A DNA stretch of 64,000 nt, from UHGV virus genome UHGV-1362809; one strand, 5' to 3'. Numbering within the stretch: position 1 is the first letter of the stretch; every line of letters begins with the position of its first letter. Below the pieces are notes generated by a model that saw nothing but the letters and a program-made list of their open reading frames with translations, was not told the DNA's origin and ran no database searches. This DNA comes from a virus. A program made the translations under genes and the position numbers. Positions 3,593-62,575 of this stretch are shown here, in pieces.

Positions 3593-4837
3593 TTATTCCT
3601 TTATACTCAACATACCTTTAGAAAACCTTTTGGCTTTACCGTACCTATCTAACCAATCCTCTACTTGATCTAAGTTCCAAAACTCAATATGTCTCAGACC
3701 ATTTTGTTTAGCAGTTTTTCTCTTTTTAGGATCTCTAATCGTCCAAGTGCGTATAGCCTCCTTATAATAAGGAGCTTTAACACTACGTTTTTCCCAATCC
3801 TTTAACAACTCTTTATGAGATTTTCTTCGTCTATTATAGGCTTTACCTCCGTGAGTCCAACTACCATTGTACTCTATGTACAAGTCAAACTTTGGTAAAT
3901 AGAAATCACAATCAAAAGGATATAACTCCGAATGATATTGTCTCAGCACACTACGTCTACCAAAGGACTTACATAATAATTTATACATATCTTCTTCTGG
4001 TTGGGAAGTGTTAAAAGAATTATTTGCTCTCTTAGAGGCATTAATCTTTTCATTCGTTTGGTCTAATTTGTCATATATTTTATGAATAAAATCCTTTGTT
4101 TTAGAGTAACTGTCAACACCATATTTATCTAGGCAAGTAGCCTTAGCTTTTTCCCTTATTTGCTCCGCATTATCACGCATAAGCTTACGTTTTTGGTCTG
4201 TTTTAGAAAAACTATCAGTACCAAACTTTTGTAAACAAGTACTTCTTCTTTTAGCTAACCAAGTATCTTTTGTAGCTGTTTGTTGTATCTTATACTGCTG
4301 AGTTTGAGTATAAAAGTCTGTGCCGTAGTGTTCCCTACAAGTTTGTTTGGATTTCTCCACAAACTTTTGTTTATTACATTGCATAAACCTCTTATGCTGT
4401 TTAGTTTTTGCGTAATTATCCACACCGTATTTATCTAAACAAGTCTGCTTAGCTTTAACTTTATATTGGTTGGACTGAGAAAAACTATATGTGCCATATT
4501 TCTCTAAGCAAGTATTATGATAATTTTGCTGTTTAAGTTCACTTTTATCCGCACAGGCACGACAACAATATAAATGATACCTACTGCCATCATAAGGTAC
4601 GGACTTTCCACAAGTTTTACAAAAGAATATATCCTCTGCAAAATCCTTTACGCCATGGCGATACCAATACCCTAATTCCTTATTAGTAAATAGTCCAGGA
4701 AATTTAGCCTCAAAATCTAAATATATAGGAAAACGAGTATATATACAGGAGAGATTTGGATATTTTTTGATTAGATAAGAGATATACTTTTTAATCCCCT
4801 TAAAATGTTTTTCTAACTTATGTCTAGACCAATTCAT
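3593..4837 (-). CDS. homing endonuclease-like protein, Vsr/DUF559-like PD-(D/E)xK C-terminal domain, Cys-rich Zn finger, tandem KYGxDN(Y/F)xKT repeats
   Basis: C-terminal FDLYIEYNGSWTHGG ... LRHIEFWNLDQV resembles the Vsr/DUF559 IEvDGxxH ... RFwnxeV signature. Four KYGVDNYAKTKQ-like repeats. CKTCG..CCRAC zinc finger. Paralogous to 10928..12118, 12105..12875 and 6248..7291. Confidence 0.55.
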   Translation of the reverse strand: MNWSRHKLEKHFKGIKKYISYLIKKYPNLSCIYTRFPIYLDFEAKFPGLFTNKELGYWYRHGVKDFAEDIFFCKTCGKSVPYDGSRYHLYCCRACADKSELKQQNYHNTCLEKYGTYSFSQSNQYKVKAKQTCLDKYGVDNYAKTKQHKRFMQCNKQKFVEKSKQTCREHYGTDFYTQTQQYKIQQTATKDTWLAKRRSTCLQKFGTDSFSKTDQKRKLMRDNAEQIREKAKATCLDKYGVDSYSKTKDFIHKIYDKLDQTNEKINASKRANNSFNTSQPEEDMYKLLCKSFGRRSVLRQYHSELYPFDCDFYLPKFDLYIEYNGSWTHGGKAYNRRRKSHKELLKDWEKRSVKAPYYKEAIRTWTIRDPKKRKTAKQNGLRHIEFWNLDQVEDWLDRYGKAKRFSKGMLSIKE

Positions 4838-4856: not shown

Positions 4857-6254
4857 CTAAGATAAATCTTTATAGGAGTTCCACCAAGTACCCTTTTGTT
4901 TGTCGTATTCATTATTGTATTTTGCATACTGCTCGTATCTCTGCTTACGATCCAAAGGTTTGTAAGCGTTCTTACGAGCTTGTGCAATAATATCCCATAC
5001 TCGCCTACAAGTAGCGGACGCCATTTTATAACGAGGTGATTCCCCATTTTTACCACGTCTTAATCCTGGAAATAACTCATACGTCATCAAGGACCTTAAA
5101 CAACCAAGCGACTGGGAAAGACCGTCTATGAACACTCTTATCACAGGCTGTCTTTTACCTGCATAAGGGGTACAAACACGGTTTGCCAACTGATAGAAAA
5201 ACGGACTTCCTACGGGTTGGGGGTTTGCCGACATCGGTGTTTGGATATAAATACAACTTGGTGCTCGGATATCTATACCTTCCTTGACCATACTGCGTAC
5301 CGCTACAATTACACGATGAATCCCTTGGTCTGCTTTATCAAGAATATCTTTACGATTACATCCCGAATAAAACCCTGCTACGAAGTTTCTCCAATCAATG
5401 GACTCACCATTTAAGAGTGTACCTTTACGAGCCAACTTTTTAGCTTTTTTCCTAATCATTTCAACCAGTAGATTCATGTGTTTTTTATGGTCGGTAGGAA
5501 TCAAAATACACTTATGTCCTGCATTTATATCTCTAAATACCTGATTAACAATTAGTTTGTTGCGCTCTGCACTGGAATATAACCATTTCATAGCATATAC
5601 CCAGTTTCCAGGACCACTTCCCTTGTACTTAGTTGTACACACCCCTGTTTCTGTAATATCCACAATAGGAACCATACCTATTGCACTTGATTTAGCCACA
5701 ATGGGACCTACAATTTCCTTAATAAGACAATCTCTGCCATCTTTTCTTAAAGGAGTCGCTGATAGTCCCAAACGATATTTCATCACCAACTTATTGACAA
5801 ACTTAGCAAATGAAACTGCAGCTGCTCCGTGGACTTCATCTAAAATTAGAAAAGAGTATCTACCATTTATATATTTTTTGATACGTTTGTCGCCACTCTC
5901 TCTAATAAATTTTTGGTATGTAACAAGGGCTACCTGTAGATTCTTCATCTCCTTAACGTCCTTTACTACCTTGACAATCGGATGACCAAGTTTTTTCTCA
6001 ATTTTTGGAACATTAGTCATCGACATAAAGGTCTTGTAAAAGTTGTTAAGAAACTCTTCCTGTTTTGCAATTACAATGGTCTTTACCCCAATTTTGCAAC
6101 AACAAAAAACAGACATCACTGTATTATGAGAAATTAATCCATTAGCATAATAGTCGTGATACTTAGGGACGGTTAGATCAAAAACAGGAGACAAGAAATC
6201 ATTAAAAATAATACTGCTAACCTTAGATTCTGTTTTATTTAGTTTGACTAACAT
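4857..6254 (-). CDS. SF2 DExH helicase, C-terminal fragment: 44-aa C-intein (6123..6254) plus C-extein starting TVMSVFCCCKIG
   Basis: N-terminus ...PVFDLTVPKYHDYYANGLISHN|T matches intein blocks F and G (terminal HN, +1 Thr). Extein carries helicase motifs Ia, II (ILDEVH), III (LSATP) and QxxxR. Confidence 0.7.
   Translation of the reverse strand: MLVKLNKTESKVSSIIFNDFLSPVFDLTVPKYHDYYANGLISHNTVMSVFCCCKIGVKTIVIAKQEEFLNNFYKTFMSMTNVPKIEKKLGHPIVKVVKDVKEMKNLQVALVTYQKFIRESGDKRIKKYINGRYSFLILDEVHGAAAVSFAKFVNKLVMKYRLGLSATPLRKDGRDCLIKEIVGPIVAKSSAIGMVPIVDITETGVCTTKYKGSGPGNWVYAMKWLYSSAERNKLIVNQVFRDINAGHKCILIPTDHKKHMNLLVEMIRKKAKKLARKGTLLNGESIDWRNFVAGFYSGCNRKDILDKADQGIHRVIVAVRSMVKEGIDIRAPSCIYIQTPMSANPQPVGSPFFYQLANRVCTPYAGKRQPVIRVFIDGLSQSLGCLRSLMTYELFPGLRRGKNGESPRYKMASATCRRVWDIIAQARKNAYKPLDRKQRYEQYAKYNNEYDKQKGTWWNSYKDLS
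6123..6254 (-). mobile_element. C-terminal half of split intein (C-intein)
   Basis: Blocks F/G VFDLTVPKYHDYYANGLISHN, followed by Thr+1 that restores GKT. Confidence 0.65.
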
Positions 6255-7291
6255 TTTCTTTCCCTTAATTTATTTATAGCCTTTACTATACTATTTACAC
6301 AATGGGGTCTGTTATAGTTCCAATCATATTCCCATATATAAAATACATTATAACCCAATTTTTTTAGCTGCTGTTCTCGTAGCTTGGTATTTTTATTAAG
6401 CATATAGGCAGTTTTAGTAGAAGTAAAACAACATCTTTTTCTAGGACTAAAAAGTTTCAAGTTTCCATGAAAATGGTCGCCATAAAATTCTAATACAATA
6501 CCATACTTTTTATTAAATCCATCTACAAACAAATTATCTATTTGATATTCAGGAATAAACTTAAGCCTTGTCTTTTTGGATATTAAATTAATAAAATCTA
6601 AACCCATAAAGGAGGCTTTTCCTACTCTATCACACACCACGCACTTTTGAATATCTTTATGTATAAAGTACTGCTGTATAACATATTTATCTGTACCGCA
6701 CCTTTTACATTTTAAATGTACTTTGTCTAAAAATCCTGTATACTCTTTTCCAAATACCTTAAAATTGGCATTTCTTTCTATTGCCTCCTTGAAAGCCTTT
6801 TTATTTAGTAGCACAACTGCTTTATTCCTTTGCACAGCTGCGTTACGCTTGTTGCATATACATCCATAAGTAAGGTGTTTATACCAAGAAGTAATTTTCC
6901 AACATTTACATTTTTTACAGTACACAGCTATAGGGGCATCTATACCAACATAATCCGATATATGCGAGTAATCATACCTACTACCATGTTTTTGTCTAGC
7001 CTTCTTTAATAAATCCTTAAGATTATTTTTTATATAAGCATGCGCTGGACTATTGTCCCTTCTACACAAGGGACACACAAACAGACCATTTCTATCGCCT
7101 TCTAATAAATGACAAGGAAGTACTCTATAGTCTACATTATGTACTGTACAAGTAACAATTACAGGAGTAAATTCGTCTACATACTCAACCTTATCAAATG
7201 ATAATTTTCGTCTATAAAGACTTTTACATTTCTTTATTAAAAGGGCAGTATTCATTTTATTCCAACAGGATTTCCAAGCAAGGTAAAACAC
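6248..7291 (-). mobile_element. free-standing Vsr/DUF559-like homing endonuclease gene lying between the two halves of the split-intein helicase
   Basis: C-terminal domain IVLEFYGDHFHGN ... LGYNVFYIWEYDW matches the Vsr/DUF559 IEvDGxxH ... GwxVlRf signature. N-terminal Cys clusters (CPLCRRD, CKKCKCW, CKRCG). In a different frame from both flanking helicase ORFs, overlapping them by 40 and 7 nt. Confidence 0.6.
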
Positions 7292-8274
7292 TTTTGTAAA
7301 ATGGGTTCTAATTCTTTATTAGCTATACTAACACTATCCTTATCTAGAAATAGTATTTTGTACACACCCATAACTACCGATAAATCATAAAAATTATCTG
7401 GAAGTATATAGTGTGAATTATGTTCTAACTCATCAGCTATTTTACTGCATACATCAAAGTTAGCTACTGGAATTTCTGGTATAGACTGGGTTGATAAACA
7501 CAAGGAATCATTAGTTGTTATGTCTTTTAACTGCTTCCATTCTCCATTGTTTACCCACATTCTGTGCTCTGGTGTACCTTCTACTGTAAAACCATCTTCT
7601 GTGACAATCTTAACAGTTTTAGATTTAGACCTGAACAAATGAGATACTTTATTAACACCTTCCTTACCAAATACCTGTATATTATCTACAGGTACAGTAA
7701 TATCTTCTGGTATATTTCCTACTACGTCACCAATTTTACGAATTTTATTATTAGCAACAATAAGAGTATCGTAAACCTGACACTTCCCGCTACGGGGCTG
7801 AGCATTAATCAAACCAAATTTATACTTTAAATAATCCTTAGTAATAGTCACTTGGTCTGCAGTGGGAAACCCATTTACCTTTTCACCATGTCTTAAAGTA
7901 CCAGTAAACTTGATTGGATAATCAAACTTATTCTCTGGTCTAACGTCCTTTACTTTGGATAGGTCAATACCAAACAACCTTTTGATTTTAAAGGCATTTC
8001 CAACAGGAACATATACATATTGTACGCCTTTGACCTTTTTTACACCCCAAGTTCTTAGTTTGGTAATAAATCCCTCACAACCTTGGGCACAAACAGAACA
8101 AGGTCTATCGTGGAAATATTCACATTTAGAACATATTGCGTCATCAAACTGCAACACTTCATAGTTTTGCTTTAAGACATTAGGGTCAACGTCTTTTTTT
8201 GGTATGTACAACTTATCTTTAATAACGGGAACTGGTTTCATTTTTGAATCACATATTATCAATAGGACGGTCAA
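7252..8274 (-). CDS. SF2 helicase, N-terminal fragment: N-extein (7783..8274, Zn-finger domain plus Walker A ...AQPRSGK) fused to 176-aa N-intein (7255..7782)
   Basis: GLINAQPRSGK|CQVYDTLIVANNK: intein block A begins at the Cys right after GK of the P-loop. Block B GTPEHRMWV present. Joining to the C-extein gives AQPRSGKTVMSVF, a canonical helicase motif I. Confidence 0.65.
   Translation of the reverse strand: MTVLLIICDSKMKPVPVIKDKLYIPKKDVDPNVLKQNYEVLQFDDAICSKCEYFHDRPCSVCAQGCEGFITKLRTWGVKKVKGVQYVYVPVGNAFKIKRLFGIDLSKVKDVRPENKFDYPIKFTGTLRHGEKVNGFPTADQVTITKDYLKYKFGLINAQPRSGKCQVYDTLIVANNKIRKIGDVVGNIPEDITVPVDNIQVFGKEGVNKVSHLFRSKSKTVKIVTEDGFTVEGTPEHRMWVNNGEWKQLKDITTNDSLCLSTQSIPEIPVANFDVCSKIADELEHNSHYILPDNFYDLSVVMGVYKILFLDKDSVSIANKELEPILQKCFTLLGNPVGIK
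7255..7782 (-). mobile_element. N-terminal half of split intein (N-intein)
   Basis: Block A CQVYDTLIV, block B TPEHRMW; ends at a stop codon with no block F/G, which are found instead at the start of ORF 4857..6254. Confidence 0.6.
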
Positions 8275-8494
8275 CAGGATTATTCATACCTGCACCAGAT
8301 GGTTTTTCTAAGTCGGAACCTTCAATGTCAGAGGTATCCTTAGTAGGATCAACTTCGCCTTGTTTAATTTGTTTTTCCCTTATTTTTTCAGCATCGGTTT
8401 GTCCGATATCTGAATCTAAGGGGTTGTAGGAAACATTATTTGGTAAAATAACGTCTCCGACTACTTCTAAATCATATTTAGATTTATCAATCAT
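8249..8494 (-). CDS. hypothetical acidic small protein
   Basis: 81-aa ORF. Confidence 0.3.
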   Translation of the reverse strand: MIDKSKYDLEVVGDVILPNNVSYNPLDSDIGQTDAEKIREKQIKQGEVDPTKDTSDIEGSDLEKPSGAGMNNPVDRPIDNM

Positions 8495-10927: not shown

Positions 10928-12118
10928 TCAATAAGTATGCAGCATACCCTTAGAAAACTTTTTAGCCTTACCATATTTACTCAACCAATTTTTCACTTGG
11001 TCTAAATTCCAAAATTCTATATACCTGAGACCGTTCCGTTTAGCAACTTTACGTTTTAATGGGTCTTTAACAGCCCACACATCAATGGCAATTTTATAAT
11101 ACTTCGACTTCTTACTTTTTTTAACCCACACATCTAACTTTTTATTGTCTGCTTGACTAAAAGGTTTACCGCCATGAGTCCAACTACCATTATATTCTAT
11201 ATACAAATCAAACTTAGGAATATAAAAGTCGCAATTAAAAGGATATAAATTAGAACTATACTGCCTTAAAACATTACGCTTATCAAAGGCTTTACACAGC
11301 AACTTATAAATAGCTTCTTCTGGTTGAGAAGTATTAAATGTACCATTATTTCTCTTAGTAGCATTTGCCTTTTCTATAACAATACCACTTTGCATAGGAT
11401 GGCACACACCATACTTAGATTTGTTAGTACGTTGTCTGTTTAACTCCCTATCTTTATCATCCAAAAGGTCTTTAAACTGTTGTGTTTGAGTATACTTACA
11501 ACCATATTTTTCATTCCAAGTTTTAAGAGTTTTCTTTCTTTGTTCTATACCCCATAAAGAACATGAATTTCCATACCTGTACACATTTGTTTTTCGAGCC
11601 TTATTTTTTAGCTCTTTGTTTTTAGATGGATTATCCACACCATAATTATCAATGCACGTCTTAGCCTTTTTAGCTTTTACGGACTCAAGTTGAGACGGGT
11701 TTTCTACGCCGTATTTAGACATGCACGATTCTTTAATCTTAGACAACACTTCCTTACTTTTAGATGGATTATCTACACCAAATTTTTCGATACTTGTATT
11801 TTTAAAACTGTTATATTTGTGTGGGTCTAAGTCCGCACATTTTTGACTACAATGAAGAGCATATTCTCTATGAAACAAAATTGGTCTAGAACAAACGGGA
11901 CAATAAAACTTGGATACCTTTAAATCTCTTAAATTGTTTTTGTACCAATAACTTAGTTCAGAGGGAGTAAACAAACCACTAAATCTGAAATCAAATTCCT
12001 TGTACAAATTAGAAGAAGGCACCACGTTCTTAACATTAGGATACTTCTTTCTAAGCATTCTTATACAAACTTTTATATCGTCAATATTGGCAGTAAGTTT
12101 ACTCTTAGTCCACTGCAT
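10928..12118 (-). CDS. Vsr/DUF559-like homing endonuclease family protein with KYGVxNPSK tandem repeats
   Basis: Repeats KFGVDNPSKSKE / KYGVENPSQLES / NYGVDNPSKNKE; C-terminal FDLYIEYNGSWTHGGK ... LRYIEFWNLDQV; Cys zinc finger CPVCS..HCSQKCAD. Confidence 0.55.
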   Translation of the reverse strand: MQWTKSKLTANIDDIKVCIRMLRKKYPNVKNVVPSSNLYKEFDFRFSGLFTPSELSYWYKNNLRDLKVSKFYCPVCSRPILFHREYALHCSQKCADLDPHKYNSFKNTSIEKFGVDNPSKSKEVLSKIKESCMSKYGVENPSQLESVKAKKAKTCIDNYGVDNPSKNKELKNKARKTNVYRYGNSCSLWGIEQRKKTLKTWNEKYGCKYTQTQQFKDLLDDKDRELNRQRTNKSKYGVCHPMQSGIVIEKANATKRNNGTFNTSQPEEAIYKLLCKAFDKRNVLRQYSSNLYPFNCDFYIPKFDLYIEYNGSWTHGGKPFSQADNKKLDVWVKKSKKSKYYKIAIDVWAVKDPLKRKVAKRNGLRYIEFWNLDQVKNWLSKYGKAKKFSKGMLHTY

Positions 12119-17095: not shown

Positions 17096-19912
17096 TTAAA
17101 AGTCTTCTTCGTCAAAATCGTCATCATCCGAATCATCTACGTCAATGTCTACTGCATTAATGAATTTTTTGTATTCTCCGGATTCAATTTGTTCAAAACA
17201 TTTAGCTCTAAGGTTTGGTTTGATACCGAGTTTTTTAATTTCGGCTTTTAATTCCTTATTACCAAATACTTCTGCAAGTATCAGTTTTTTGAATGTTAGC
17301 CAATCTAACTCAACCCCTTCAAAACCTTTGATATTTACACTAAACTTTTTACGGCGTTCACCATCATACTGTCCTGTTTCGTATAAATATGCCCAAGTAT
17401 CAAATACAGGGTCTATGCCTCTACCTTTACCATTACCGTCCTTGAACCAAATACGCTGGTATCCCATTTTAAATGGTGTACCCTTTTTGTTTTTGGTATT
17501 TACAATTTTTTTATACTGATATTTATCAGTACCTCCAGCTACTTCAACGGAATCCTCTTCGCCTTCACTCGTTGAATCACCCTTATCCCAAGTACCCATT
17601 TTTACCGATGTAACAGCAATCGAGGTAAATTCACAGCGTACGTCACTATTATGGGATACTATACCATTAACAACAACAGTATGAGATTTTGGCATATTAA
17701 AATCGCAGACATAACGGGAGGATACCAATTCAGATTTTTTAAAGGAATCCCACATTATTTTATTTTTAATACTATAGGAACACAAGTTCAAAATAGAATT
17801 AAGAATTTCTACGTTTTTAACTCTCTCTTGTTCAGTTCTTAAACCAGAGATATAAAACAAATAGTCCTTTTTATTAGACATTAAATCTCTCATGTCTAAA
17901 TGACGTATATGTTTTTTACCAGTATCTACATATTCAAAAATATACTTAAATATTTTTGATTTTCTAACAGTATAGCTGATACAGTCTACGGGGAAGATAT
18001 ATTTTATATCTTTCCCTGTTGTTTTAAGACCTTTTCTTCTCTCTATAATCTTTCTTTTTCTAGCGGTCATACAACCAACAGTGTCATAAAACAAAGTTAA
18101 ATTATAACCGTATAGCGACAAACCAGCATATTTTGTTCTATTATCCTCTGGGGTATGCCAACTGTTGTTAAAGTAGATCTTTCTACCGCAAATTCCCATG
18201 TTTAACAAAAGCAGATGTATTTGGTCCACCATTTGTCTACTCGCAAGGGCTATTGAATACTGCTTATCTCCAAAACTTCCTTCACAGTCCATAAAACAAC
18301 GCAGAAAATCAATAACATACTCTTTTGGAGCAGTCATAATCAACTCAGGAACTTGTTTTCTTCTTGCCGGCTCATTCCCCGAACATTTTTGTATTAAAAA
18401 CTGTCTAAACCAAGCTGATCTTATTTCTACATAGTAGACATATTTTCTACCAAGATTGTCCTTACTATAAAGTTTTTTTATTTTATAGGGAAGTCTTAAT
18501 TTATTACAGCAATACACAATATCATCAATTATCTCTTTATCTTTATTAACTACAGAACATACGTATTCCCTACAAAAACCCTCGGCTAATACATAACCAA
18601 GCAATCGTGCCAATTCGTGAGTTAGTTTTTTTGGATAATTTTTTATTTCTGTCTTAGAATAAACTAACTTGTCATTAAACGGTTCAAAGTTAAGGGACGT
18701 ATTATTTCCCCACACGTTATAACCATACTTAATAGGAATGAAATGTTTACTATTTAAGGAGGATAAACAAGTCCATTGACTATCCAAAGTATTTTTTCTT
18801 TCTTGTTTACAAATAGTTTTAACTCTATGAGACAAACTACCTGTCATAGAATACCCAAGAGAAGTTGTTATAGTGAGACAAGCTTTCTTACCAAAATTTT
18901 TATAAAGTGCGGGCTTCTCCTTACCAATTTCAGAAAGGACACACCCATCTTTATAATCCCTACCTCGTATAATGCCTTTACTGGTAAAAATATAGTCATT
19001 TTCATCAAAGCAAAAGTATTTCAGCGCATTACCGCAGGGTTCCGTTGTTGGTTTCCCATACATAACCATCGGTTTATCCCTTAACTGATTTACACCATAG
19101 ATAACACAATGTTTACGTCTTAGCAACCCTTTTATTTGAGGAACCCATTTACCGTACTCACGAGCTTGTAGAGCTACACCCGAACTATCTTTATCCTCAT
19201 CTTCTCCAATGTCTTCTGGTATAAATGCTGGGTAGGAGTCTAGCATAAACACAGCTTGAAAGTCAGGACTATCAACAGGACACCAAACTTGCTTTCTCGA
19301 TTTGTCAGCTCCTTTTAAACCCAAAGTATTCATCATCTTGACATGGGTCTTACGACTTGGGTCAAATACCAAATACCACTGGTCTTTTTCTTTTTTGTAC
19401 TTTTTATCGGGCAAATTAAGAAGACGCTCTTTAATTACACCGAACACCTTTTCCATTGTGGTATCGTCATAGTAACGAGCGCAACCGTATTTTTCCGTTT
19501 TTCCTTTTTCATTTTTTAACCCAAAAATGTCGGATAAATCTGCAACCCTACAAATTGCAGGCGTATAAGTACCGTCAACAGAACCTTCCCCGTCAAAATA
19601 ATAACAGGGAATATTATGTCTTACACACTCGCCCAAAAACGAAATACAGTTCGTGGATTTTGATGAAGCTTCACCCCCAAGCAATGTGTACCAACCACTA
19701 CTAACACCGCCACCATAAACTATATTAAGCACCAAGCTATCAGCAGGTAGGCGATAAGGTATATCAATAGAAGAGCCAATACCGACATTACGTTCAATCG
19801 TTTCGATATCCTGCATAGCATACTGAGCAAACTTCTGCTGAAACGACAACTCGACGGGAGCTTCCTTTTTAGGAGATACCTTAACTTTTTTCTCTTTAAC
19901 TTTTTTAGCCAT
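17096..19912 (-). CDS. UvsX/RecA-like recombinase carrying an in-frame 455-aa intein with a LAGLIDADG homing endonuclease domain
   Basis: Extein: RecA-like P-loop LLGGEASSKST, GNALKYF|..|SDVRCEF (RecA GNALKFYASVRL), acidic C-terminal tail. Intein: block A CFDENDYIFT, block B GSLSHRV, LAGLIDADG blocks LLGYVLAEGF and DFLRCFMDCEGSF, blocks F/G YVCDFNMPKSHTVVVNGIVSHN|S. Confidence 0.75.
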   Translation of the reverse strand: MAKKVKEKKVKVSPKKEAPVELSFQQKFAQYAMQDIETIERNVGIGSSIDIPYRLPADSLVLNIVYGGGVSSGWYTLLGGEASSKSTNCISFLGECVRHNIPCYYFDGEGSVDGTYTPAICRVADLSDIFGLKNEKGKTEKYGCARYYDDTTMEKVFGVIKERLLNLPDKKYKKEKDQWYLVFDPSRKTHVKMMNTLGLKGADKSRKQVWCPVDSPDFQAVFMLDSYPAFIPEDIGEDEDKDSSGVALQAREYGKWVPQIKGLLRRKHCVIYGVNQLRDKPMVMYGKPTTEPCGNALKYFCFDENDYIFTSKGIIRGRDYKDGCVLSEIGKEKPALYKNFGKKACLTITTSLGYSMTGSLSHRVKTICKQERKNTLDSQWTCLSSLNSKHFIPIKYGYNVWGNNTSLNFEPFNDKLVYSKTEIKNYPKKLTHELARLLGYVLAEGFCREYVCSVVNKDKEIIDDIVYCCNKLRLPYKIKKLYSKDNLGRKYVYYVEIRSAWFRQFLIQKCSGNEPARRKQVPELIMTAPKEYVIDFLRCFMDCEGSFGDKQYSIALASRQMVDQIHLLLLNMGICGRKIYFNNSWHTPEDNRTKYAGLSLYGYNLTLFYDTVGCMTARKRKIIERRKGLKTTGKDIKYIFPVDCISYTVRKSKIFKYIFEYVDTGKKHIRHLDMRDLMSNKKDYLFYISGLRTEQERVKNVEILNSILNLCSYSIKNKIMWDSFKKSELVSSRYVCDFNMPKSHTVVVNGIVSHNSDVRCEFTSIAVTSVKMGTWDKGDSTSEGEEDSVEVAGGTDKYQYKKIVNTKNKKGTPFKMGYQRIWFKDGNGKGRGIDPVFDTWAYLYETGQYDGERRKKFSVNIKGFEGVELDWLTFKKLILAEVFGNKELKAEIKKLGIKPNLRAKCFEQIESGEYKKFINAVDIDVDDSDDDDFDEEDF
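17648..19012 (-). mobile_element. intein (Hint splicing domain plus LAGLIDADG endonuclease) inside the recombinase gene
   Basis: Cys codon at 19010-19012 and terminal His-Asn at 17648-17653 followed by Ser; two LAGLIDADG motifs. Confidence 0.7.
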
Positions 19913-26783: not shown

Positions 26784-27499
26784 TTGTGTAAAATAGGACT
26801 TAACATATAGTCCAAAACACTAATGTCCTTTTTAGTAAGATTGTTTATTTCAGAAATCTCTATAACCCCTACCCTATCTAAATCCAAAGAGGCTAAAAAG
26901 TTTTTTATTTTTTTAGGCGATAAACCATTTTCCACATTGTAATGACATGACCTATAAAACTTAGGGTCTAATGCGTCTACGTCAATACTTATACAAATTT
27001 TTTCGTCCTTAGGAATATCCCCAAACCCACAGATACTCAAGTTTTTAAGATTAGATGTTTCCTTAAAATCCGTACTTCTTGTACCTATTGCATATACCTT
27101 ATTTACAGGATACGAAACTAAAGATACAACATCTGGGTCTCCGACATGCCCTAAACAAGCTAAACCCATGCCATGTTCTTTTTTAGAAGGGGAAGTATCC
27201 CAAGTATTAGCATCTAAGTGTGCGTCTATATAAACAACATTAGGATACTCTTTCAAATAAGGAGCTAAAACTGCAACATTGAGACAATGATTAGACGTAA
27301 AGTACACATTGGGAAGGTCACCTCTCGGTGACACTTCCTTAAATGTATCCTTCAACACACCATACCAGTTATGGTCTTTTAATCTATCCTTAGGATCAAC
27401 GTCATAGGTATAAACCCCTCCTATATGACTAACATATTTGGACACCGACGTATCACAAGGATATTTTCCACCGTACTTACAGTACAATCCTTTAATCAT
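26774..27499 (-). CDS. ureohydrolase-family enzyme (arginase/agmatinase/formiminoglutamase fold)
   Basis: VVYIDAHLDANTWDT (DAHxD) and CISIDVDALDP (SxDxDxxDP) manganese-binding signatures. Confidence 0.5.
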   Translation of the reverse strand: MIKGLYCKYGGKYPCDTSVSKYVSHIGGVYTYDVDPKDRLKDHNWYGVLKDTFKEVSPRGDLPNVYFTSNHCLNVAVLAPYLKEYPNVVYIDAHLDANTWDTSPSKKEHGMGLACLGHVGDPDVVSLVSYPVNKVYAIGTRSTDFKETSNLKNLSICGFGDIPKDEKICISIDVDALDPKFYRSCHYNVENGLSPKKIKNFLASLDLDRVGVIEISEINNLTKKDISVLDYMLSPILHKCA

Positions 27500-28977
27500 T
27501 TAACGTCCTCAAAAAAGTAATGTTCATATTCCTGAACTTCTTTCAAATGATTAATATGAAAGGCGGTTTGCCTTAACTGACAAGGACCGCAGTTACCACA
27601 AGGCTTATCATGGTCACGGTAGCAACTCCAAGTAAGGTGCAAAGGAGCTCCAATTTCCATACCAAGCTTTACAATTTCGTGCTTAACTAAGTTTTCCAAA
27701 CTTGATCTAATAACAGGTTTACTATGACAACCTAATGCCAGCACTTCATTAAATTTGTGCATAAATACAGTCTGGTTATCTCTATAAGCCCCTGCTTCTT
27801 CAAGGTTTAAACCGAGATAAATATTACCAATATTATATCTATCACAATAGGACGCAATCAAACCGATAAAAGCAGTATTACGAGCGGGAACCCAGTCAAT
27901 ATCCTTTTCTGAACCTTCCACAGGCTTACCAATGTCAGAATCATTACCATCAACAATAGTTGAGCCACCAAGATTTTTAATAAAGGATAAATCCATAAAC
28001 TCGCACTTGATTGTTTTTGTAGGGAATTTATCTTGCAGGTATTTGGTAATGTTTTTTACACATTCCACTTCTTTCTTTTCTGCACGACATCCATACAAAA
28101 AGTGCGCTAATGTTATTTCTTTGTATTGAGGGTCTTGACAGGCTAACGTAGCTGAAACGGTCGAATCTAAACCACCTGAACAAATTACGATAGCTTTACT
28201 TTGTGATTTCTTATAAGACTCTTCCTCCACTCCATAAAAAGGCTCTGTCGTATGTCCCTCAGCGGTCAAAACAATATGAGTAAAAGGATTAAAAGTAACA
28301 TGATTATACTTGTAGTTCTTCAACTCCGGCTCAATAAATTCAGACAAGGACGTAAAAATATAACAGTCAAAGTCATAAATATAGTACAGTTCGATTGGAG
28401 CAAAGTTTTTGTACAAGTGAAGGCTTAACTGCTTATCGTCGGTATTAAATAGTGCAGTAGCAATAGCTCCATCTAACTCATTCATTCGATTGTGGTAGGC
28501 ACAATAAGGAATCGCATAGGAATCAATAGATGTAGGAACCTCTACGCCTTTTAAAAGCTGCTTATCGTTGCAAATTGTACCATTATGCACAGCCCAAACT
28601 GTCTTATAATTGTAGGGCTGAATGTCTGCTTTTGAAACTTTGTCTAAACATTCCGTTGTAGGTTCAGCTCTAAAATTGCAAATGATAATACGGGATAAAT
28701 AGTCCAAAGAAATATTTTTATCTATCAACCGATGCAAGTACTTCTCTTTTTCAATTCTGCTACTACCAACAGGGATAGCTTCCTTTGTAGCAAAATGACC
28801 GTCTTCTACTTTGAAACTGTCATAGGATACAAAACCAAAACCGTCCACACCACGTTTAGTACTATTACGCAGAACTGCTTTAAAAAGCAGTTCTAATCGG
28901 TAGCGTTCTTCATCATTTATATCACGGGTTAGATAAACACCATTAATACTGCACATAGTAGTTCCTCTCTTACACAA
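27496..28977 (-). CDS. Gat-QueC fusion: class-II (Ntn) glutamine amidotransferase fused to QueC-like PP-loop ATPase
   Basis: N-terminal MCSINGVY (Ntn Cys2); PP-loop IVICSGGLDST; C-terminal QueC zinc motif WSCYRDHDKPCGNCGPCQLR. Confidence 0.65.
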   Translation of the reverse strand: MCKRGTTMCSINGVYLTRDINDEERYRLELLFKAVLRNSTKRGVDGFGFVSYDSFKVEDGHFATKEAIPVGSSRIEKEKYLHRLIDKNISLDYLSRIIICNFRAEPTTECLDKVSKADIQPYNYKTVWAVHNGTICNDKQLLKGVEVPTSIDSYAIPYCAYHNRMNELDGAIATALFNTDDKQLSLHLYKNFAPIELYYIYDFDCYIFTSLSEFIEPELKNYKYNHVTFNPFTHIVLTAEGHTTEPFYGVEEESYKKSQSKAIVICSGGLDSTVSATLACQDPQYKEITLAHFLYGCRAEKKEVECVKNITKYLQDKFPTKTIKCEFMDLSFIKNLGGSTIVDGNDSDIGKPVEGSEKDIDWVPARNTAFIGLIASYCDRYNIGNIYLGLNLEEAGAYRDNQTVFMHKFNEVLALGCHSKPVIRSSLENLVKHEIVKLGMEIGAPLHLTWSCYRDHDKPCGNCGPCQLRQTAFHINHLKEVQEYEHYFFEDVK

Positions 28978-48088: not shown

Positions 48089-48514
48089 TTGAAATTATTT
48101 ACAATAATTTTAAATATAATAGGTATGTTTAAGAGGTATGTTATGTACGAGGAACTCGCAAGGGGTGTGTCTTTAAAACAGTGGAAGGCTATGACAGCCG
48201 TTCAAAAAAATGATTATTTGAGAATACACCCGAATAGTATATATGCCAAAAAAATAAAGGCTATACGGTTAGCCTTTCAACGTGGCATTGAACAAAATAG
48301 GATAAATGCTTTTCCTAAGTTTAACATTGTAAAAGTGGGTGAAACGTTTGAATACAGTTTAACCTTGCAAGGTAAGATACTTTTTAGTGGTACGAATTTT
48401 TATTCTGCCTCTGAAGCAGCGAAAGATTTAGTATCTAATTTACCCCAAGAGCAGTGGTTGCAAAACGGTATGCAAAATTTTCTTGACGACGTAAAAAGAC
48501 AATTTGGAGAATAA
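48089..48514 (+). CDS. hypothetical protein
   Basis: 141-aa ORF, first plus-strand gene after the strand switch. Confidence 0.4.
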   Translation: MKLFTIILNIIGMFKRYVMYEELARGVSLKQWKAMTAVQKNDYLRIHPNSIYAKKIKAIRLAFQRGIEQNRINAFPKFNIVKVGETFEYSLTLQGKILFSGTNFYSASEAAKDLVSNLPQEQWLQNGMQNFLDDVKRQFGE

Positions 48515-50219
48515 TATGTTGCAGTTAAATAGGTTGAAAGTATTGGCAATGTCGAAAGACTTGGAGAATAGCTTTATATCATACCTTAAATTTTTATCCT
48601 CTATTGTAGCCTCTCAAGCTGACTTGTCCATTCCTGACGAAAAAGTTGTTGATAAATGGATTGAGCAGTCTATGCCTTTTGTTGAGAACTCCGTTAAACA
48701 AAAAAGGTTTAACTTATTAAGAAAATATATGTATGACCACAATTCCCGTTGGGAACAGTACATAAATAATCTTGGTAATGAAATTAAGGATTCTATTCTT
48801 CCTTCTTTAGCTTATGATAGCTCTATACCTACTTCCTATCTTGACTTGTTGAAGTATTTTGGTGGTTATTTCAGGAACCTATCTGAATCACCTCTAAAAA
48901 ACATTATGCAAAAGTCTAATGTGTTGAATGATCCAAATGTTAGTAAAATTTTTACTTATGATGTCAGTACAACGCAAGACCAAGCTATTAAAAATGCAAC
49001 TCGTTTAGCTGAAAAAATACTGGGTAAAGGTGCTGATCCTAATATTCCTGCAGCTACGAAAAAAGAACTTCGTAAAAAATATGCCGATAATGATAAAATG
49101 TTGGATTTAATTAAGGAACAAACAAAAGCATATTCCGAAATTAAAAACATATATAAACAGCATTTATCCAATATTATTAGACGTTCAGGAAAACCTTACT
49201 TACCTGTTGAACAAGTAAAGAAACAGCTGGCAAAAGAAGGTATTGTGCGTCATACTATTCCAAAAGGTTTTGTGGGTAATGTTGGTGACGATGGCTCTTT
49301 GTACACGACAGAGGGTCTAAAAATTCAAGGCGTTCCTAACGGTTCAGTTCGTATGAATCCTGACTACGATCCTAAAAAAGATAATACATCAGTATTTTTG
49401 TCTGATGGTGATGGTACATTTAAAGAGGAACACGGTTACTACACCGTCCATTATAAAGATCGTGGAAGAAAACATAAATTTGAAACAGTGGAAAAAGTCA
49501 ATGAGGTAATCGACGGTGTACGGGAAAAGTGGCTGAAGAACTTGCACCGTTGGACAGGTGACCGTGCTAATGTCGCTTCCTTGATGATGGAAATTATGTA
49601 CAATGTTAGTTCTCGTATCGGTAGTGAAGGTGCTGCTACCGACGGTAAGCCCACTTTTGGTACTTCTACTTGGCGTGTTAAGCATATCAAATTTGATGGA
49701 GACCGTGCTATTATAAAGTACACAGGTAAAAAAGGTCAGCCTCTTAGACATGTTCTTGACCCAAATAAATTTCCTGAACATCGGTTAATCATAGATCGTC
49801 TTAAAAAACTGGTAAAAGATAAAAAACCGAATGACAGAGTTTTCACAGACAACAAGGGTAAACCTGTTACTGCTCCTATGGTAAATGCACAACTAAAAGC
49901 CTATGGTTGCCCTGCGACAGCACATAAGTTAAGACATGTCAAAGGTACTCGAATGGCTAAGAAGTTGTTTGCAAAATCCCCATTTGATAAACGTAAAAAC
50001 CCTCCAAAACAAGCAGAGGTAGACAAGTGGGTAAAAACAACTGTTGAAAAAATCGGTAAACAGCTCGGTCACCAAGTTACAAAGGCAGACGGTACTAAGA
50101 AAGTTCAATGGAGTACATCCATGAACAACTACATTTCACCTTCCGTTGTGAAAGACTTTTATAATAGAATTGGAGTACATATACCCAAGTTCTTAGAGAA
50201 GTTAAAGGAAGAGGACTAA
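48504..50219 (+). CDS. tyrosine-recombinase / topoisomerase-IB-fold protein (integrase or protelomerase-like)
   Basis: ATAHKLRHVKGTRMA (HxxR box) ... KQLGHQV ... SMNNYISPS (candidate Tyr nucleophile). Likely true start is M5 at 48516, after the GGAG RBS. Confidence 0.35.
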   Translation: MENNMLQLNRLKVLAMSKDLENSFISYLKFLSSIVASQADLSIPDEKVVDKWIEQSMPFVENSVKQKRFNLLRKYMYDHNSRWEQYINNLGNEIKDSILPSLAYDSSIPTSYLDLLKYFGGYFRNLSESPLKNIMQKSNVLNDPNVSKIFTYDVSTTQDQAIKNATRLAEKILGKGADPNIPAATKKELRKKYADNDKMLDLIKEQTKAYSEIKNIYKQHLSNIIRRSGKPYLPVEQVKKQLAKEGIVRHTIPKGFVGNVGDDGSLYTTEGLKIQGVPNGSVRMNPDYDPKKDNTSVFLSDGDGTFKEEHGYYTVHYKDRGRKHKFETVEKVNEVIDGVREKWLKNLHRWTGDRANVASLMMEIMYNVSSRIGSEGAATDGKPTFGTSTWRVKHIKFDGDRAIIKYTGKKGQPLRHVLDPNKFPEHRLIIDRLKKLVKDKKPNDRVFTDNKGKPVTAPMVNAQLKAYGCPATAHKLRHVKGTRMAKKLFAKSPFDKRKNPPKQAEVDKWVKTTVEKIGKQLGHQVTKADGTKKVQWSTSMNNYISPSVVKDFYNRIGVHIPKFLEKLKEED

Positions 50220-59205: not shown

Positions 59206-60576
59206 ATGACTCAAGATGTTGAAATTGTGTTTGAAGATTGTGATGAAGGTATCACCGACACAAAAAGAGCTTTTGATGACGTTGTTGAGCGACTTAATCG
59301 AGTGAGAGAAATTCTTAATAATCAAATTCTTGAAAGAAAGCAAGAAATTGATGGTATTTTGATTACAATTATGGCGGACTCCTCCTGCCTATTTTTAGGT
59401 GATCCGGGAACTGCAAAAACCCAGATGGTTAAGTATGCTTCTTATTTGTTTGGTCTTGTGTCGTTTGATATTTTACTTGGGGAGACCACCAAACCCGAAC
59501 AGGTATTTGGTCCCACAAATATACCAGCTTTAGCACAAGGTAAGCTGTATACTTCTACAAAAGGGTATGCACCAGAGTGTGAGGTGTTGTTTCTAGACGA
59601 AGTGTTCAAATCTAATGGTACGGTGCTTAACCCTCTGCTGTGGTTGATTAATGAAAAACAATATCGTAATGGGGATTTAGGCGTTATAGACTGCCCTATT
59701 AAGGCTGTGTTCGCTGCTTCTAACGAGTTACCCAACGATGATTCCTTGGGAGCATTTTTTGACCGTCTTGTTTTGAGATACGAGGTGCAACCTCTTAAAA
59801 GTGTGCAGAATATATCTAAGATGATTAACAATTTTCTGCACCACCCAGCTAAACCCCAGCCCATATTCAACACGCATTTGTTTGACGTTTTGAGAGGGTT
59901 TGTTAAGCAGGTAGTCATACCAGAGGAACTAATTACTACTTTGTACAATATCAAGTGTCAGCTAGAACGTGTACATAAGATTACTATTTCTGACCGTCGT
60001 CTAAACAAGTGCATACGATTGGTACAAGCACAAGCAGTTCTTAATGGTCGGCTTAAAGCAGAGCTTAGAGATTTTGAAATTTTGCAGCATTGTCTATGGG
60101 ATACTCCTGAAACTAAGTCTAAAATTCAGTCAACGGTAATGTCTTTTGTCAACACCAGTATTCCTCAGCTTATCGCCTATTCAGATATGTGTACTAATCT
60201 ATATAATACCGCATTTGAAACAGGTAATATGAAAAGGGCTCTTGCCAAGCTTAAAAAACTATATGCTAAGGTTAAACCTTATACTGGAGCTACAGCTGAG
60301 AATGTTGTCAATGACATCAAGTCTAAGTTTAGTAAGATCGCACAAGTATGTAAGCAACGTGAGCAGTTTGTGCTGTATCGAGTAAAAGCTGGTAGTAATG
60401 TCTACTACCAAGTTGACAACACAACTGCCTCTTTGTGGACGTATAAACAGATGAGAGCTTGTGAATTTAGACAACGACGTAAGGGTAATTACTGGTATTC
60501 TTCTGATAGTAAGGACGTTATTGCCTCCCGTATTTCTCAAACCTTGGGTGTGCAGGTAGTTATCAAGAAGCTTTGA
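59206..60576 (+). CDS. MoxR-family AAA+ ATPase
   Basis: Walker A FLGDPGTAKTQMV; Walker B VLFLDEVFK; MoxR-type NGTVLNPLLWLINEKQY. Confidence 0.6.
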   Translation: MTQDVEIVFEDCDEGITDTKRAFDDVVERLNRVREILNNQILERKQEIDGILITIMADSSCLFLGDPGTAKTQMVKYASYLFGLVSFDILLGETTKPEQVFGPTNIPALAQGKLYTSTKGYAPECEVLFLDEVFKSNGTVLNPLLWLINEKQYRNGDLGVIDCPIKAVFAASNELPNDDSLGAFFDRLVLRYEVQPLKSVQNISKMINNFLHHPAKPQPIFNTHLFDVLRGFVKQVVIPEELITTLYNIKCQLERVHKITISDRRLNKCIRLVQAQAVLNGRLKAELRDFEILQHCLWDTPETKSKIQSTVMSFVNTSIPQLIAYSDMCTNLYNTAFETGNMKRALAKLKKLYAKVKPYTGATAENVVNDIKSKFSKIAQVCKQREQFVLYRVKAGSNVYYQVDNTTASLWTYKQMRACEFRQRRKGNYWYSSDSKDVIASRISQTLGVQVVIKKL

Positions 60577-60625
60577 TATACTGGGTGAAGTATTCTCATT
60601 TAGTATAAGATACATAGAGGTAGGT

Positions 60626-62575
60626 ATGATTACACAACAGGACATTAAGCAAGCTTTACAGACGTTGACCTCTAAGTTCGAGGTTGACTTTACTAAGCTA
60701 CCAGTTATTGTGACAGACGACGTTGACATAGCCCGCACCGACTTTGAATACATCTATCTTAGTGATAAACTTAGAGCTAAAGACCTATCTACGGTTATAG
60801 CTCATGAAGTGATGCACTTTTTGACTGGTAGCGGGGAGTTAGACTATAAGTATGGATCTATCCAGTGTAATATTGCAGAGGACTTGATAATAAATCAGTG
60901 GTTGAAGCAGTATGGTTTAGACGTAACCAAGTTGAGTCGTAAAGGTTTGTTGGACTCTAAACCTTGGTCTCTTACTAAACGTCTTAGCAAATTACCTATT
61001 GTCAATCAGCCCTGCGTTAGTCGGTTAGTTCCTAACGAGCTGATGCGTTGTGCTATAGAAATTAGTCACAAAAAAAGGTTTAAGCATTATTCTTTGTTGC
61101 AGGATACTTTAATGGACGAGGTAGAGTTTGCTGAATCCTTGGTAAACACTGTATCCACTTCTTTACCGATAAATCTTTATGCTGTAATGCGGTTTTGGTT
61201 TGATTGGTTGTACAAGGAAGACCAAATTAATACTGATTATGTTCTAAACACAGAGTATGACTATTCGCATTTGATATGTTGGGGAGCTCCTAAATGGTCT
61301 CGTAAATTGTACGACGACCCTGCCTTAACTATAAGTTGCACAAGTATGTATCTCAGCAACGTAGCCTATCATACTGCATGGCTGGTAGACCGTAAGAGAA
61401 GGCTACAGAATAGTTTGTCCTCCTGTCAACGAAAAATTAGTGACCTAAAGCAACAAACTTATACAGCCAAGGTACGAAAGGATTTAAATAATGCTATTCG
61501 TAGAAAGAAATCCTTAAAATATCGTATCAAACATTTTGACACACGGGGAGCAGATTATTGGCTTACTAATACTTCTTTAATGGGCAGGTATTATAGTACT
61601 GCATATACTCCTACGCTCTTTCACAAGGTTAATACTCCTGATGATTGCATACCGTATAGTAAGTGTCCAACTCCTTTATATAAACAGCTGGGTTGGTGCC
61701 TAAGACAGGCAGTTAAGAATAACGAACTATGCGCCGACCTTTACAACAAGTTAGAAGAAATACTTGGTGAAATGAAGTGCGAACTAAAAAATGGTCAGCC
61801 TGATTTAAAGTACCAAAGAATTAGGTCTAAAATTGCTGACATTTTGACCATTAATAGACTGACTCATCTTATATCTAAAATTCTTAAATTAAAAGGTGGG
61901 TTTGATTCTACTCTTAAACTTAATAGAAGTAAACCATCGGATAATAGTTCCTCAAGTGTGGGCTATACTCTTGGTAGTGATATTTCTAATGCAGTTATAT
62001 CAGAGCTGGGATTACTTGCTAACGAATGTACAAAATTGGATTTTTTGGTAAAGTTGTCGCAGGGTAGCCTTTTTCAAGTAAGCAGTATGGTTAGTAAGAG
62101 ACTGCCTTTGATTATGTATATTGATACCAGTGGGAGTATGGGCTCCCAAGGTAGATTTAGTATGTGTATAGCCTATGCCTTGAGTATAGCTACTATTCTT
62201 AAAAAGGAGAAACGTGGAGTAGCTATTGTGTTGTTTGACGATTGTATTAGATATTCCAAAGTGATTGACGACAACTATAGCATGACGGATTTGTTAGACC
62301 TTATCTCTACCCAAACAAGCGGTGGTGGTACGAATTTTGAGCTAGCCTATAAAGAAGGTAAGCGCATACAACAGGAACAAGGTTGGGGAAATAGTATCCA
62401 CGTAGTAATGAGCGACGGTCAATTTGTAGTACCTGCTGAGAAACAACCAAACGACCAGCACTATGCCCTGTTATTTAAATCTTCTAATACTGACGCTGAT
62501 ATGCAGTCTTTCTTTGATAATGGGTGTTGGCAGTGTTCTTTGTCGAGTATTACCAAAATTACTCTTAAATTATAA
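60626..62575 (+). CDS. VWA-domain protein with N-terminal putative HExxH metallopeptidase domain (DUF2201-like partner of MoxR ATPases)
   Basis: N-terminal VIAHEVMHFLTG; C-terminal MIDAS LIMYIDTSGSMGS ... TSGGGTNF. Confidence 0.5.
   Translation: MITQQDIKQALQTLTSKFEVDFTKLPVIVTDDVDIARTDFEYIYLSDKLRAKDLSTVIAHEVMHFLTGSGELDYKYGSIQCNIAEDLIINQWLKQYGLDVTKLSRKGLLDSKPWSLTKRLSKLPIVNQPCVSRLVPNELMRCAIEISHKKRFKHYSLLQDTLMDEVEFAESLVNTVSTSLPINLYAVMRFWFDWLYKEDQINTDYVLNTEYDYSHLICWGAPKWSRKLYDDPALTISCTSMYLSNVAYHTAWLVDRKRRLQNSLSSCQRKISDLKQQTYTAKVRKDLNNAIRRKKSLKYRIKHFDTRGADYWLTNTSLMGRYYSTAYTPTLFHKVNTPDDCIPYSKCPTPLYKQLGWCLRQAVKNNELCADLYNKLEEILGEMKCELKNGQPDLKYQRIRSKIADILTINRLTHLISKILKLKGGFDSTLKLNRSKPSDNSSSSVGYTLGSDISNAVISELGLLANECTKLDFLVKLSQGSLFQVSSMVSKRLPLIMYIDTSGSMGSQGRFSMCIAYALSIATILKKEKRGVAIVLFDDCIRYSKVIDDNYSMTDLLDLISTQTSGGGTNFELAYKEGKRIQQEQGWGNSIHVVMSDGQFVVPAEKQPNDQHYALLFKSSNTDADMQSFFDNGCWQCSLSSITKITLKL

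Follow-up and report, generated by a model that had tools for sequence, protein, structure and literature searches.

A predicted fractured helicase gene in a metagenomic phage contig, with empty and contiguous-intein alleles in near-identical phages

Split inteins from fractured loci, such as gp41-1, NrdJ-1 and IMPDH-1, are widely used for protein ligation, and fractured genes have been proposed as a route to natural split inteins. These three are among the examples given in the cited sections of the study of fractured genes by Dassa, London, Stoddard, Schueler-Furman and Pietrokovski (2009; NAR 37:2560; PMC2677866), which describe no matching contiguous-intein precursor allele. According to a 2025 survey, intein-associated Vsr-like endonucleases have been reported only in the split-intein context of 2009, and documented cases are therefore still few. 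Two further described groups are of relevance here: (i) the I-Bth0305I or “EDxHD” family of homing endonucleases (Taylor et al. 2011, PMC3239194; PDB 3R3P), together with Vsr of E. coli (1VSR, 1CW0), and (ii) the inteins of ATPase P-loops (DnaB-b, MCM-a and RFC-S-a), a typical place of intein insertion (Novikova et al. 2016, PMC4760082). In this study we analysed a window of 64,000 nucleotides (nt) of the virus genome UHGV-1362809, which is part of a 237-kb metagenomic contig (L003); coordinates refer to this window. It contains what is very probably (we would put the probability at about 0.85) a fractured gene: a superfamily 2 (SF2; ResIII/XPB-like) helicase gene split in Walker A by a class 1 intein, which is itself broken by an endonuclease gene. 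This arrangement, already recognized in a preliminary description made from the sequence alone, matches the one presented in the cited sections of the 2009 paper.

The contig is phage-like (it encodes PolA, a DnaB-type helicase, RNase H and NrdD), and a RecA-like gene is encoded inside the window itself. The locus is composed of three tightly packed minus-strand open reading frames (ORFs), which occupy three frames (end coordinates mod 3 = 0, 1 and 2) and correspond to the N-terminal half of the helicase (N-half), the endonuclease and the C-terminal half (C-half). Its predicted parts are listed below (aa, amino acids; bp, base pairs; IntN and IntC, N- and C-intein).

7783..8241, minus strand: N-extein (helicase N-part, 153 aa), with a Cys-rich N-domain; ends with the Walker A residues AQPRSGK
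7255..7782, minus strand: IntN, 176 aa; Cys1 in CQVYDTLIV (block A), GTPEH (block B); stop codon at 7252..7254
7483..7782, minus strand: HINT part of IntN, about residues 1-100
7255..7482, minus strand: tail of IntN, ~75 aa
6248..7255, minus strand: free-standing homing-endonuclease gene, 335 aa; own ATG, separate frame
about 6611..7255, minus strand: Cys-rich N-terminal repeats of the endonuclease
about 6251..6610, minus strand: C-terminal Vsr/I-Bth0305I-like nuclease domain of the endonuclease
6123..6254, minus strand: IntC, 44 aa, MLVKLNKTESKVSSIIFNDFLSPVFDLTVPKYHDYYANGLISHN; blocks F and G, penultimate His and terminal Asn
4857..6122, minus strand: C-extein (helicase C-part), 421 aa plus stop; its first residue is the Walker A Thr (+1 nucleophile), followed by motifs Ia, II (DEVH) and III (SAT)
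6123..7782, minus strand: entire intervening element (IntN, endonuclease gene and IntC), 1660 bp; boundaries set by comparison with contig L004
6251..7258, minus strand: cassette of 1008 nt that distinguishes the fractured allele from a contiguous mini-intein allele; blastn and codon-level comparison with contig L009, 3500-5887

The intervening element falls between the Lys and Thr codons of Walker A, and its length (1660 bp) is not a multiple of 3. In the preliminary description the C-half was placed at 4857..6254, which stands, while the starts given for the other two ORFs probably have to be moved to internal ATG codons. The N-half ORF was listed as 7252..8274 with a TTG start. The ATG at 8241 is located 8 nt past the stop codon of the upstream gene, and the product beginning there (MKPVPVIKDKLYIP) agrees with the N-termini of orthologues, so that this ATG, rather than the TTG, is the likely start. 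The resulting protein of 329 aa consists of 153 aa of helicase and the 176 aa of IntN, and reads INAQPRSGK/CQVYDTLIV...GTPEHRMW (a slash marks the splice junction or insertion point throughout). The middle ORF was listed as 6248..7291 with a GTG start; most likely it begins at ATG 7255, which overlaps the stop codon of the N-half as ATGA. The ATG of the C-half (6254) is preceded by AAGGGA and overlaps the stop codon of the endonuclease gene as ATGTTAG. The C-half (465 aa) reads MLVKL...VFDLTVPKYHDYYANGLISHN/TVMSVF, followed by DEVH and SAT.

Profile searches support the assignment of the intein halves. The order of motifs reported earlier, i.e. helicase sequence ending in AQPRSGK, then intein blocks A and B and a stop in the N-half, and blocks F/G, then T-VMSVF, DEVH and SAT in the C-half, is present, and the models concerned all score above their cut-offs: NCBIfam intein_Nterm (TIGR01445) with 26.9 bits against 24.5 in the N-half, and intein_Cterm (TIGR01443) with 28.4 against 15.6 and Pfam ResIII with 39.6 against 22.5 in the C-half. 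The two halves match complementary portions of the Pfam Intein_splicing profile (positions 2-96 and 122-155, respectively). All residues of a class 1 intein are present, namely C1 (CQVYD), GTPEH (TxxH), VFDLTVPKYHDYYANGLISHN with the penultimate His and terminal Asn, and T+1. The splicing residues are also kept in the distantly related contig L005 and in full-length inteins of the same site.

The helicase part matches PHROG 16 (DNA helicase), and the motifs GKT, DEVH and SAT are present in the sequence. The XPB and rad25 models gave weak matches, far under their cut-offs, and the subfamily was not assigned. The name “replication helicase” used in the preliminary description is not secure: relatives of this protein are annotated as “DNA repair helicase”, and the contig has a gene for a distinct DnaB-type helicase close by. 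In tblastn searches the N-extein and C-extein map to one gene in jumbo phages, e.g. Dickeya phage JA29, and the C-extein finds matches in 698 phage records. The alignment with the JA29 helicase crosses PRSGK-TV (GK/T) without a gap, which confirms the expected collinearity with an intact orthologue. Moreover, the predicted 574-aa spliced product, in which Walker A is rebuilt as had been suggested, has an exact counterpart (100% identity) in P0180, a protein of related phages that occurs on 4 contigs, the longest of 207 kb. The C-extein is identical to residues 154-574 of P0180, and the N-extein is identical to residues 1-153 of both P0180 and P0001 (see below). Among 50,697 phage records, megablast detected no match to the locus; the phage is known from metagenomes only.

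The locus could be compared among phages that carry it in fractured form (window, L007 and L008), as an empty site (L004) and with a contiguous intein (L009). L007 and L008, assemblies from other samples, contain the same ORFs of 329, 335 and 465 aa with the same overlaps, and an assembly artefact is therefore not the cause of this structure. Three ORFs in three frames with no contiguous intein, as first described, are thus found in three independent assemblies. The empty site is that of P0001 (574 aa, contig L004), which is 100% identical to the N-extein; the DNA of L004 is ~95-98% identical to that of the window. In codon-level comparison L004 is without exactly positions 6123..7782, and its empty site reads ...CGTAGTGGAAAA/ACAGTG.... 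An intein-less allele in related phages, envisaged in the preliminary description, is thus represented by P0001 and P0180.

The contiguous state was found in contig L009 (234 kb), which represents a near-identical phage and was reached via a neighbouring protein of the window. Its helicase is a single ORF of 795 aa and holds the same intein as a contiguous mini-intein of 221 aa (...LLGNPVGI-DSG-LVKLNKTESK...; linker DNA ...GGAATTGATAGTGGTCTAGTC...). The flanking helicase DNA of L009 and the window is 98.2-98.6% identical, and the sole structural difference between them is that 11 nt (TGATAGTGGTC) of L009 correspond to 1008 nt of the window (6251..7258). This cassette roughly coincides with the endonuclease ORF: its first bases make the stop codon of IntN and its last bases give AAGGGA and the ATG of IntC, and the stop codon of the endonuclease gene uses the resident cTAGtc. 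The contiguous allele of the L009 type is also represented by P0156, and the intein of P0175 differs from that of the window by one residue and the linker. In the clustered collection we counted 7 distinct sequences of the contiguous allele, 8 of the empty allele and 2 fractured variants.

The spliced coding sequence differs from that of L004 at 26 of 1725 nt, and 25 of these differences are synonymous. Three of the 26 lie within 7 nt, in the Ser-Gly-Lys codons at the junction (window 7783..7791, minus strand; L004 4728-4736), which read AGC/AGT GGG AAG (here the slash separates alternative codons) in the fractured alleles and AGT GGA AAA in L004, the one empty allele examined at the DNA level. 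Two of the changes (GGG AAG versus GGA AAA) are common to both fractured alleles. These differences may represent a short co-conversion tract or a variant of the target site. A separate, post hoc observation concerns the hexamer TAGTGG, which in the empty allele precedes the insertion point by 4 nt (L004 ~4727-4732) and is also present inside the 11 nt replaced by the cassette (L009 helicase, nt ~986-991). This may be due to chance, or may hint at a recognition sequence of the endonuclease.

We propose the following interpretation of the locus. IntN and IntC would bring the helicase fragments together, and trans-splicing would proceed through attack by Cys1, transesterification involving Thr+1 and cyclisation of the terminal Asn, yielding a 574-aa helicase with an intact GKT P-loop. 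In the simplest history that we infer from these alleles, a free-standing endonuclease gene would have invaded the contiguous mini-intein and split it, which would represent step II of the gene-breaking model in the cited sections of Dassa et al. The endonuclease presumably spreads the cassette, the whole element, or both, by cutting alleles that are without them.

Expression of the split gene was also considered. The three ORFs are most likely transcribed into one mRNA, with coupled translation, because they lie on the same strand, their stop and start codons overlap (ATGA, ATGTTAG) and there is no terminator between them. Promoter- and terminator-like sites were not in excess over shuffled sequences, and on the coding strand no terminator was predicted between the ORFs. 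No Rfam family was found anywhere in the window, and hence no recognizable group I intron near the endonuclease gene.

The endonuclease has numerous relatives. A HMMER search identified 6650 of them at E ≤ 0.001 among cluster representatives; many are ~300-400 aa long and aligned over nearly their full length, and others are longer with several matching stretches, which fits a variable number of N-terminal repeats. An alignment of 35 sequences of the C-terminal domain revealed the (nearly) invariant motifs VDG, E-F, G-D, WHG, T..RE and WE; the protein of the window contains EFYGDHFHGN and GYNVFYIWEYDW. The AlphaFold (AF2) model of the nuclease domain has a predicted local distance difference test (pLDDT) score of 97.6, and in a Foldseek search its matches at ranks 1-2 were I-Bth0305I (3r3p, E 2.9e-4), followed by Vsr (1vsr, 1cw0); lower ranks comprised RAP-domain proteins, with the DUF559 structure 3hrl at rank 14. 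A profile of the family compared with PDB found three E. coli Vsr entries as the best matches, at a weak E of 0.06, with the known motifs correctly aligned, and the single sequence found nothing meaningful in PDB. In Pfam, MTES_1575 (23.7 against 38.2) and RAP (20.2 against 24.2) remained below threshold and DUF559 did not match. The earlier designation “Vsr/DUF559-like” therefore holds for the fold, for which 3r3p and Vsr are the best Foldseek matches, but not at the level of the DUF559-type Pfam models.

With respect to the catalytic residues of Vsr (E25, D51, H64, H69 and D97), the Asp of VDG and the His of FHG are (nearly) invariant in the 35 relatives; the last position is Glu (RE) instead of Asp, and the first Glu (EY.I) was assigned by eye alone. 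The N-terminal 215 aa form three Cys-rich repeats of ~65 aa, with weak matches to DUF723, CapR and zinc-ribbon models and no NUMOD match, and probably bind DNA. A hidden Markov model of the nuclease domain detected no second copy in the window, and two DUF7487 ORFs found there belong to a different family. The G+C content of the endonuclease gene (0.28-0.30 in window 6001..6750) is lower than that of the C-extein (0.37-0.42), which is consistent with a foreign origin of the cassette.

A second fractured gene, nrdD, was observed in L009 (15592-19222), where an N-part with IntN (268 aa), a 375-aa endonuclease and IntC with the C-part (566 aa) follow one another. Its endonuclease is of the same family as that of the helicase locus (nuclease domains 30% identical, E 1e-15), and its junctions also overlap (TAATG and ATGA). 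The contig of the window carries the same nrdD N-part (L003 21099.., ~5 kb beyond window position 1).

A distant version of the helicase locus is present in L005, which is 43% identical over the N-half (39% over IntN) and has the same intein with the same aligned split point. Here the halves are separated by a 65-nt spacer, with no endonuclease; the stop codon of IntN occupies the same alignment column, IntC starts with ML, and the junction is the same AAATGTTAG, the only element common to the spacer region of L005 and the window. The state of L005 corresponds to step III of the Dassa model (the gp41-7 case in the cited sections). We considered whether a 22-codon ORF in the spacer (ending in KKC followed by a stop) could be a remnant of the endonuclease gene, and rejected this for lack of significant similarity: the observed score was reached in 354 of 1000 shuffles. 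Contiguous inteins of ~430-445 aa occupy the same GK/[C] site in Vibrio phage GR7B and in P0157, P0158, P0161, P0163 and P0166. Blocks F/G of these six are clearly related to those of the window, and precomputed Pfam data give LAGLIDADG_3 in four of them (none for P0161 and GR7B). L005 was also found to carry other inteins: a second, contiguous one in motif II (DE/C...GN/CH) of its helicase C-half (7431-9755), a LAGLIDADG intein in DnaB, and two intein matches in a 1563-aa protein.

The IntN tail is conserved in L005. AF2 modelled IntN poorly as a whole (pLDDT 59.5), with values of 71-89 in the tail, where the predicted helices are of moderate confidence, and a Foldseek search with this model gave no match at E ≤ 0.001. 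Visual inspection and a MAFFT alignment that included full-length inteins of the same site made a degenerate LAGLIDADG half-domain seem plausible. This reading was rejected, as the tail has no Pfam match and hhalign against LAGLIDADG regions gave probabilities of 0.2-0.4%. The BLASTP alignment of IntN with the GR7B intein is limited to the HINT part.

Substitutions were counted between the window and L007, both of which are fractured. The results were as follows.

Exteins: 24 synonymous, 3 non-synonymous; omega about 0.03
HINT part of IntN: 5 synonymous, 0 non-synonymous
Endonuclease: 11 synonymous, 2 non-synonymous; omega about 0.04
IntN tail: 0 synonymous, 2 non-synonymous

The pattern in the exteins, the HINT part and the endonuclease is consistent with purifying selection, as would be expected if the helicase were still required and the endonuclease gene had remained active.

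Several observations weigh against the interpretation of the locus as an active fractured gene of recent origin. The tail of IntN shows only non-synonymous changes in the above comparison, and the synonymous bias elsewhere need not reflect selection on the fractured state alone, as recombination with intact alleles could account for part of it. Thr at position +1 is a weaker nucleophile than Cys or Ser. In addition, IntN (176 aa) is longer than in published fractured-gene inteins (88-105 aa in the cited sections of Dassa et al.), with ~75 aa of tail unexplained, and the charge complementarity reported there for split inteins was not seen between IntN and IntC (net charges -1 and 0). Finally, the direction from contiguous to fractured is one that we infer, and a break point shared with the very divergent L005 is awkward for a recent invasion.

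The last point is the basis of the alternative that survives best, in which the fractured allele came first and gave rise to the contiguous mini-intein of 221 aa (L009/P0156) through loss of the endonuclease gene and in-frame fusion, similar to the “healing” of step IIIa in the cited sections of Dassa et al. An old break is suggested by the L005 intein, which is split at the same aligned position, with the same stop column and AAATGTTAG junction, even though IntN is only 39% identical. A simple deletion, however, would not be expected to leave the 11 nt TGATAGTGGTC, which by inspection (short of an exhaustive search of the cassette) resemble neither cassette end, and the contiguous alleles exceed the fractured ones in number and diversity (7 against 2 distinct sequences); because of these two points we consider such a reversal unlikely. 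The mini-ORF in the L005 spacer, with its non-significant similarity to the endonuclease, also fails to support it. Such a history would leave the identity of the element unchanged, and differs from the proposed invasion in the order of events alone.

A second alternative, to which we attach a low probability, is that no splicing takes place: the halves might work as a non-covalent complex held together by the intein halves, or the helicase might be dispensable and decaying. The fragments of NrdA of phage Aeh1 are reportedly functional without splicing, which provides a precedent, and trans-splicing in the present locus is predicted from sequence, with the long IntN tail and the missing charge complementarity being atypical. 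On the other hand, all the splicing residues are intact and have been kept between the window and L005 in spite of the low identity of their IntN sequences. Moreover, the break lies inside the P-loop (GK/T), and a non-covalent join would be unlikely to rebuild a nucleotide-binding loop. The differences between fractured alleles (24 synonymous to 3 non-synonymous in the exteins, 5 to 0 in the HINT part) also argue against decay.

The last alternative, one contiguous intein with an in-frame endonuclease whose frames reflect sequencing errors or two programmed -1 frameshifts, draws on the endonuclease frame, which stays open over the 12 codons that precede its ATG, and on two -1 shifts arithmetically restoring the frame, but is essentially refuted by the identical ORF structure of three assemblies from different samples, the endonuclease's own ATG, its many relatives of ~300-400 aa with near full-length alignment (consistent with free-standing genes), the unbroken, cassette-free intein of the contiguous allele and the lack of a canonical slippery heptamer at either junction by inspection, short of a formal motif scan.

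Returning to the fractured-gene interpretation, a broader proposal can be made, the chances of which we regard as evenly balanced. One phage population may capture the gene-breaking step postulated in 2009, in which the cassette homes to the linker of a mini-intein (not to a host gene) and thereby makes a functional split intein with its own stop codon, ribosome-binding site and start codon; L005 would be a later stage, with the endonuclease gone and a plain split intein left behind, and nrdD would have been fractured by a paralogous endonuclease. If this is true, the phage group is a natural system for reconstructing and testing the birth of split inteins.

Other features of the window concern further mobile elements and genes unusual in phages.

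3593..4837, minus strand: second free-standing endonuclease-like gene, DUF7487 (Pfam), PHROG 3339 “homing endonuclease”; lies downstream of the helicase, 19 nt away
10928..12118, minus strand: another DUF7487-family ORF (PHROG 3339)
17096..19912, minus strand: RecA/UvsX-like protein, 938 aa, with a contiguous intein containing LAGLIDADG_3; intein end ...VVNGIVSHN/S
27496..28977, minus strand: glutamine-amidotransferase-QueC fusion, unusual in phage; may point to 7-deazaguanine DNA modification
48504..50219, plus strand: eukaryotic-type topoisomerase IB (Pfam Topoisom_I, 58.6 bits), unusual in phage
59206..62575, plus strand: MoxR-type AAA+ ATPase beside a VWA-domain protein, unusual in phage

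The DUF7487 gene at 3593..4837 is outside the split-intein unit, yet within the same invaded locus. Neither of the two DUF7487 ORFs is present in L004, only the first occurs in L009, and both occur in L007; near-identical phages therefore differ in a mosaic fashion in their selfish genes. The C-termini of these ORFs (FDCDFYLP..LYIEYNGSWTHGG) resemble, by eye, a nuclease of the PD-(D/E)xK or Vsr type, for which model matches give no confirmation.

The locus provides a complete example of a fractured gene in a phage contig of ~237 kb, with a new host protein and a P-loop site. Alleles for all three states (empty, contiguous, fractured), about 98% identical in nucleotide sequence, together with the nrdD case, make the gene-breaking model directly testable; it can be asked which of the alleles is cleaved by the endonuclease, and whether a working split intein results from the insertion by itself. 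The locus also supplies a new predicted split-intein pair, in which the N-fragment is unusually long and the +1 residue is Thr.

Comparison with known systems places the locus closest to those of Dassa et al. (PMC2677866), to the cited sections of which the following statements refer. In both cases a phage DNA-metabolism enzyme is broken at an intein site, with the N-part and IntN, a Vsr-like ORF, and IntC and the C-part on one strand; the break occurs where the endonuclease domains of inteins normally sit, and a related locus without endonuclease exists (gp41-7 there, L005 here). In contrast, an SF2 helicase and the GK/T site are not among their eight host proteins, IntN is 176 aa (theirs 88-105 aa), and the N-terminus of the endonuclease carries Cys-rich repeats instead of NUMOD motifs. 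The design is also very compact, with overlapping ORFs and predicted translational coupling, unlike the published loci, where a non-coding leader/hairpin of 27-51 nt before the endonuclease is a descriptive feature. Furthermore, our locus is in a complete contig of ~237 kb (theirs came from fragmentary metagenome reads), and is matched by empty and contiguous-intein alleles at about 98% nucleotide identity.

The endonuclease resembles I-Bth0305I and Vsr in its nuclease fold, in the Asp corresponding to Vsr D51 (VDG), in the His corresponding to H69 (FHG), and in an extra Glu at the position of Vsr F62 (LEF). Like I-Bth0305I it has two parts, a presumed DNA-binding region at the N-terminus and the nuclease at the C-terminus. 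It differs from both in sequence (identity of about 15-19%) and in the Glu (RE) that its family has at the position of Vsr D97, and from I-Bth0305I in its N-terminal Cys-rich repeats and its location between intein halves rather than in a group I intron. The intein itself shares with the known P-loop inteins (PMC4760082) the insertion in Walker A and a +1 nucleophile derived from the GK[T/S] motif; unlike them, it is naturally split, with a separate endonuclease gene in another frame. The non-canonical inteins of actinophages (bioRxiv 10.1101/2025.01.02.630785) are similar in having an endonuclease ORF of the free-standing type (including Vsr/EDxHD-like ones) out of frame in the intein region, and in their proposed origin, whereby a free-standing endonuclease gene invaded an intein. 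There, however, the frame is continuous and some of the ORFs are antisense, whereas here the frame is broken and two halves would be translated. The fractured-gene phenomenon has been known since 2009; what is new is the host protein, the insertion site and the presence of a contiguous-intein allele in near-identical phages.

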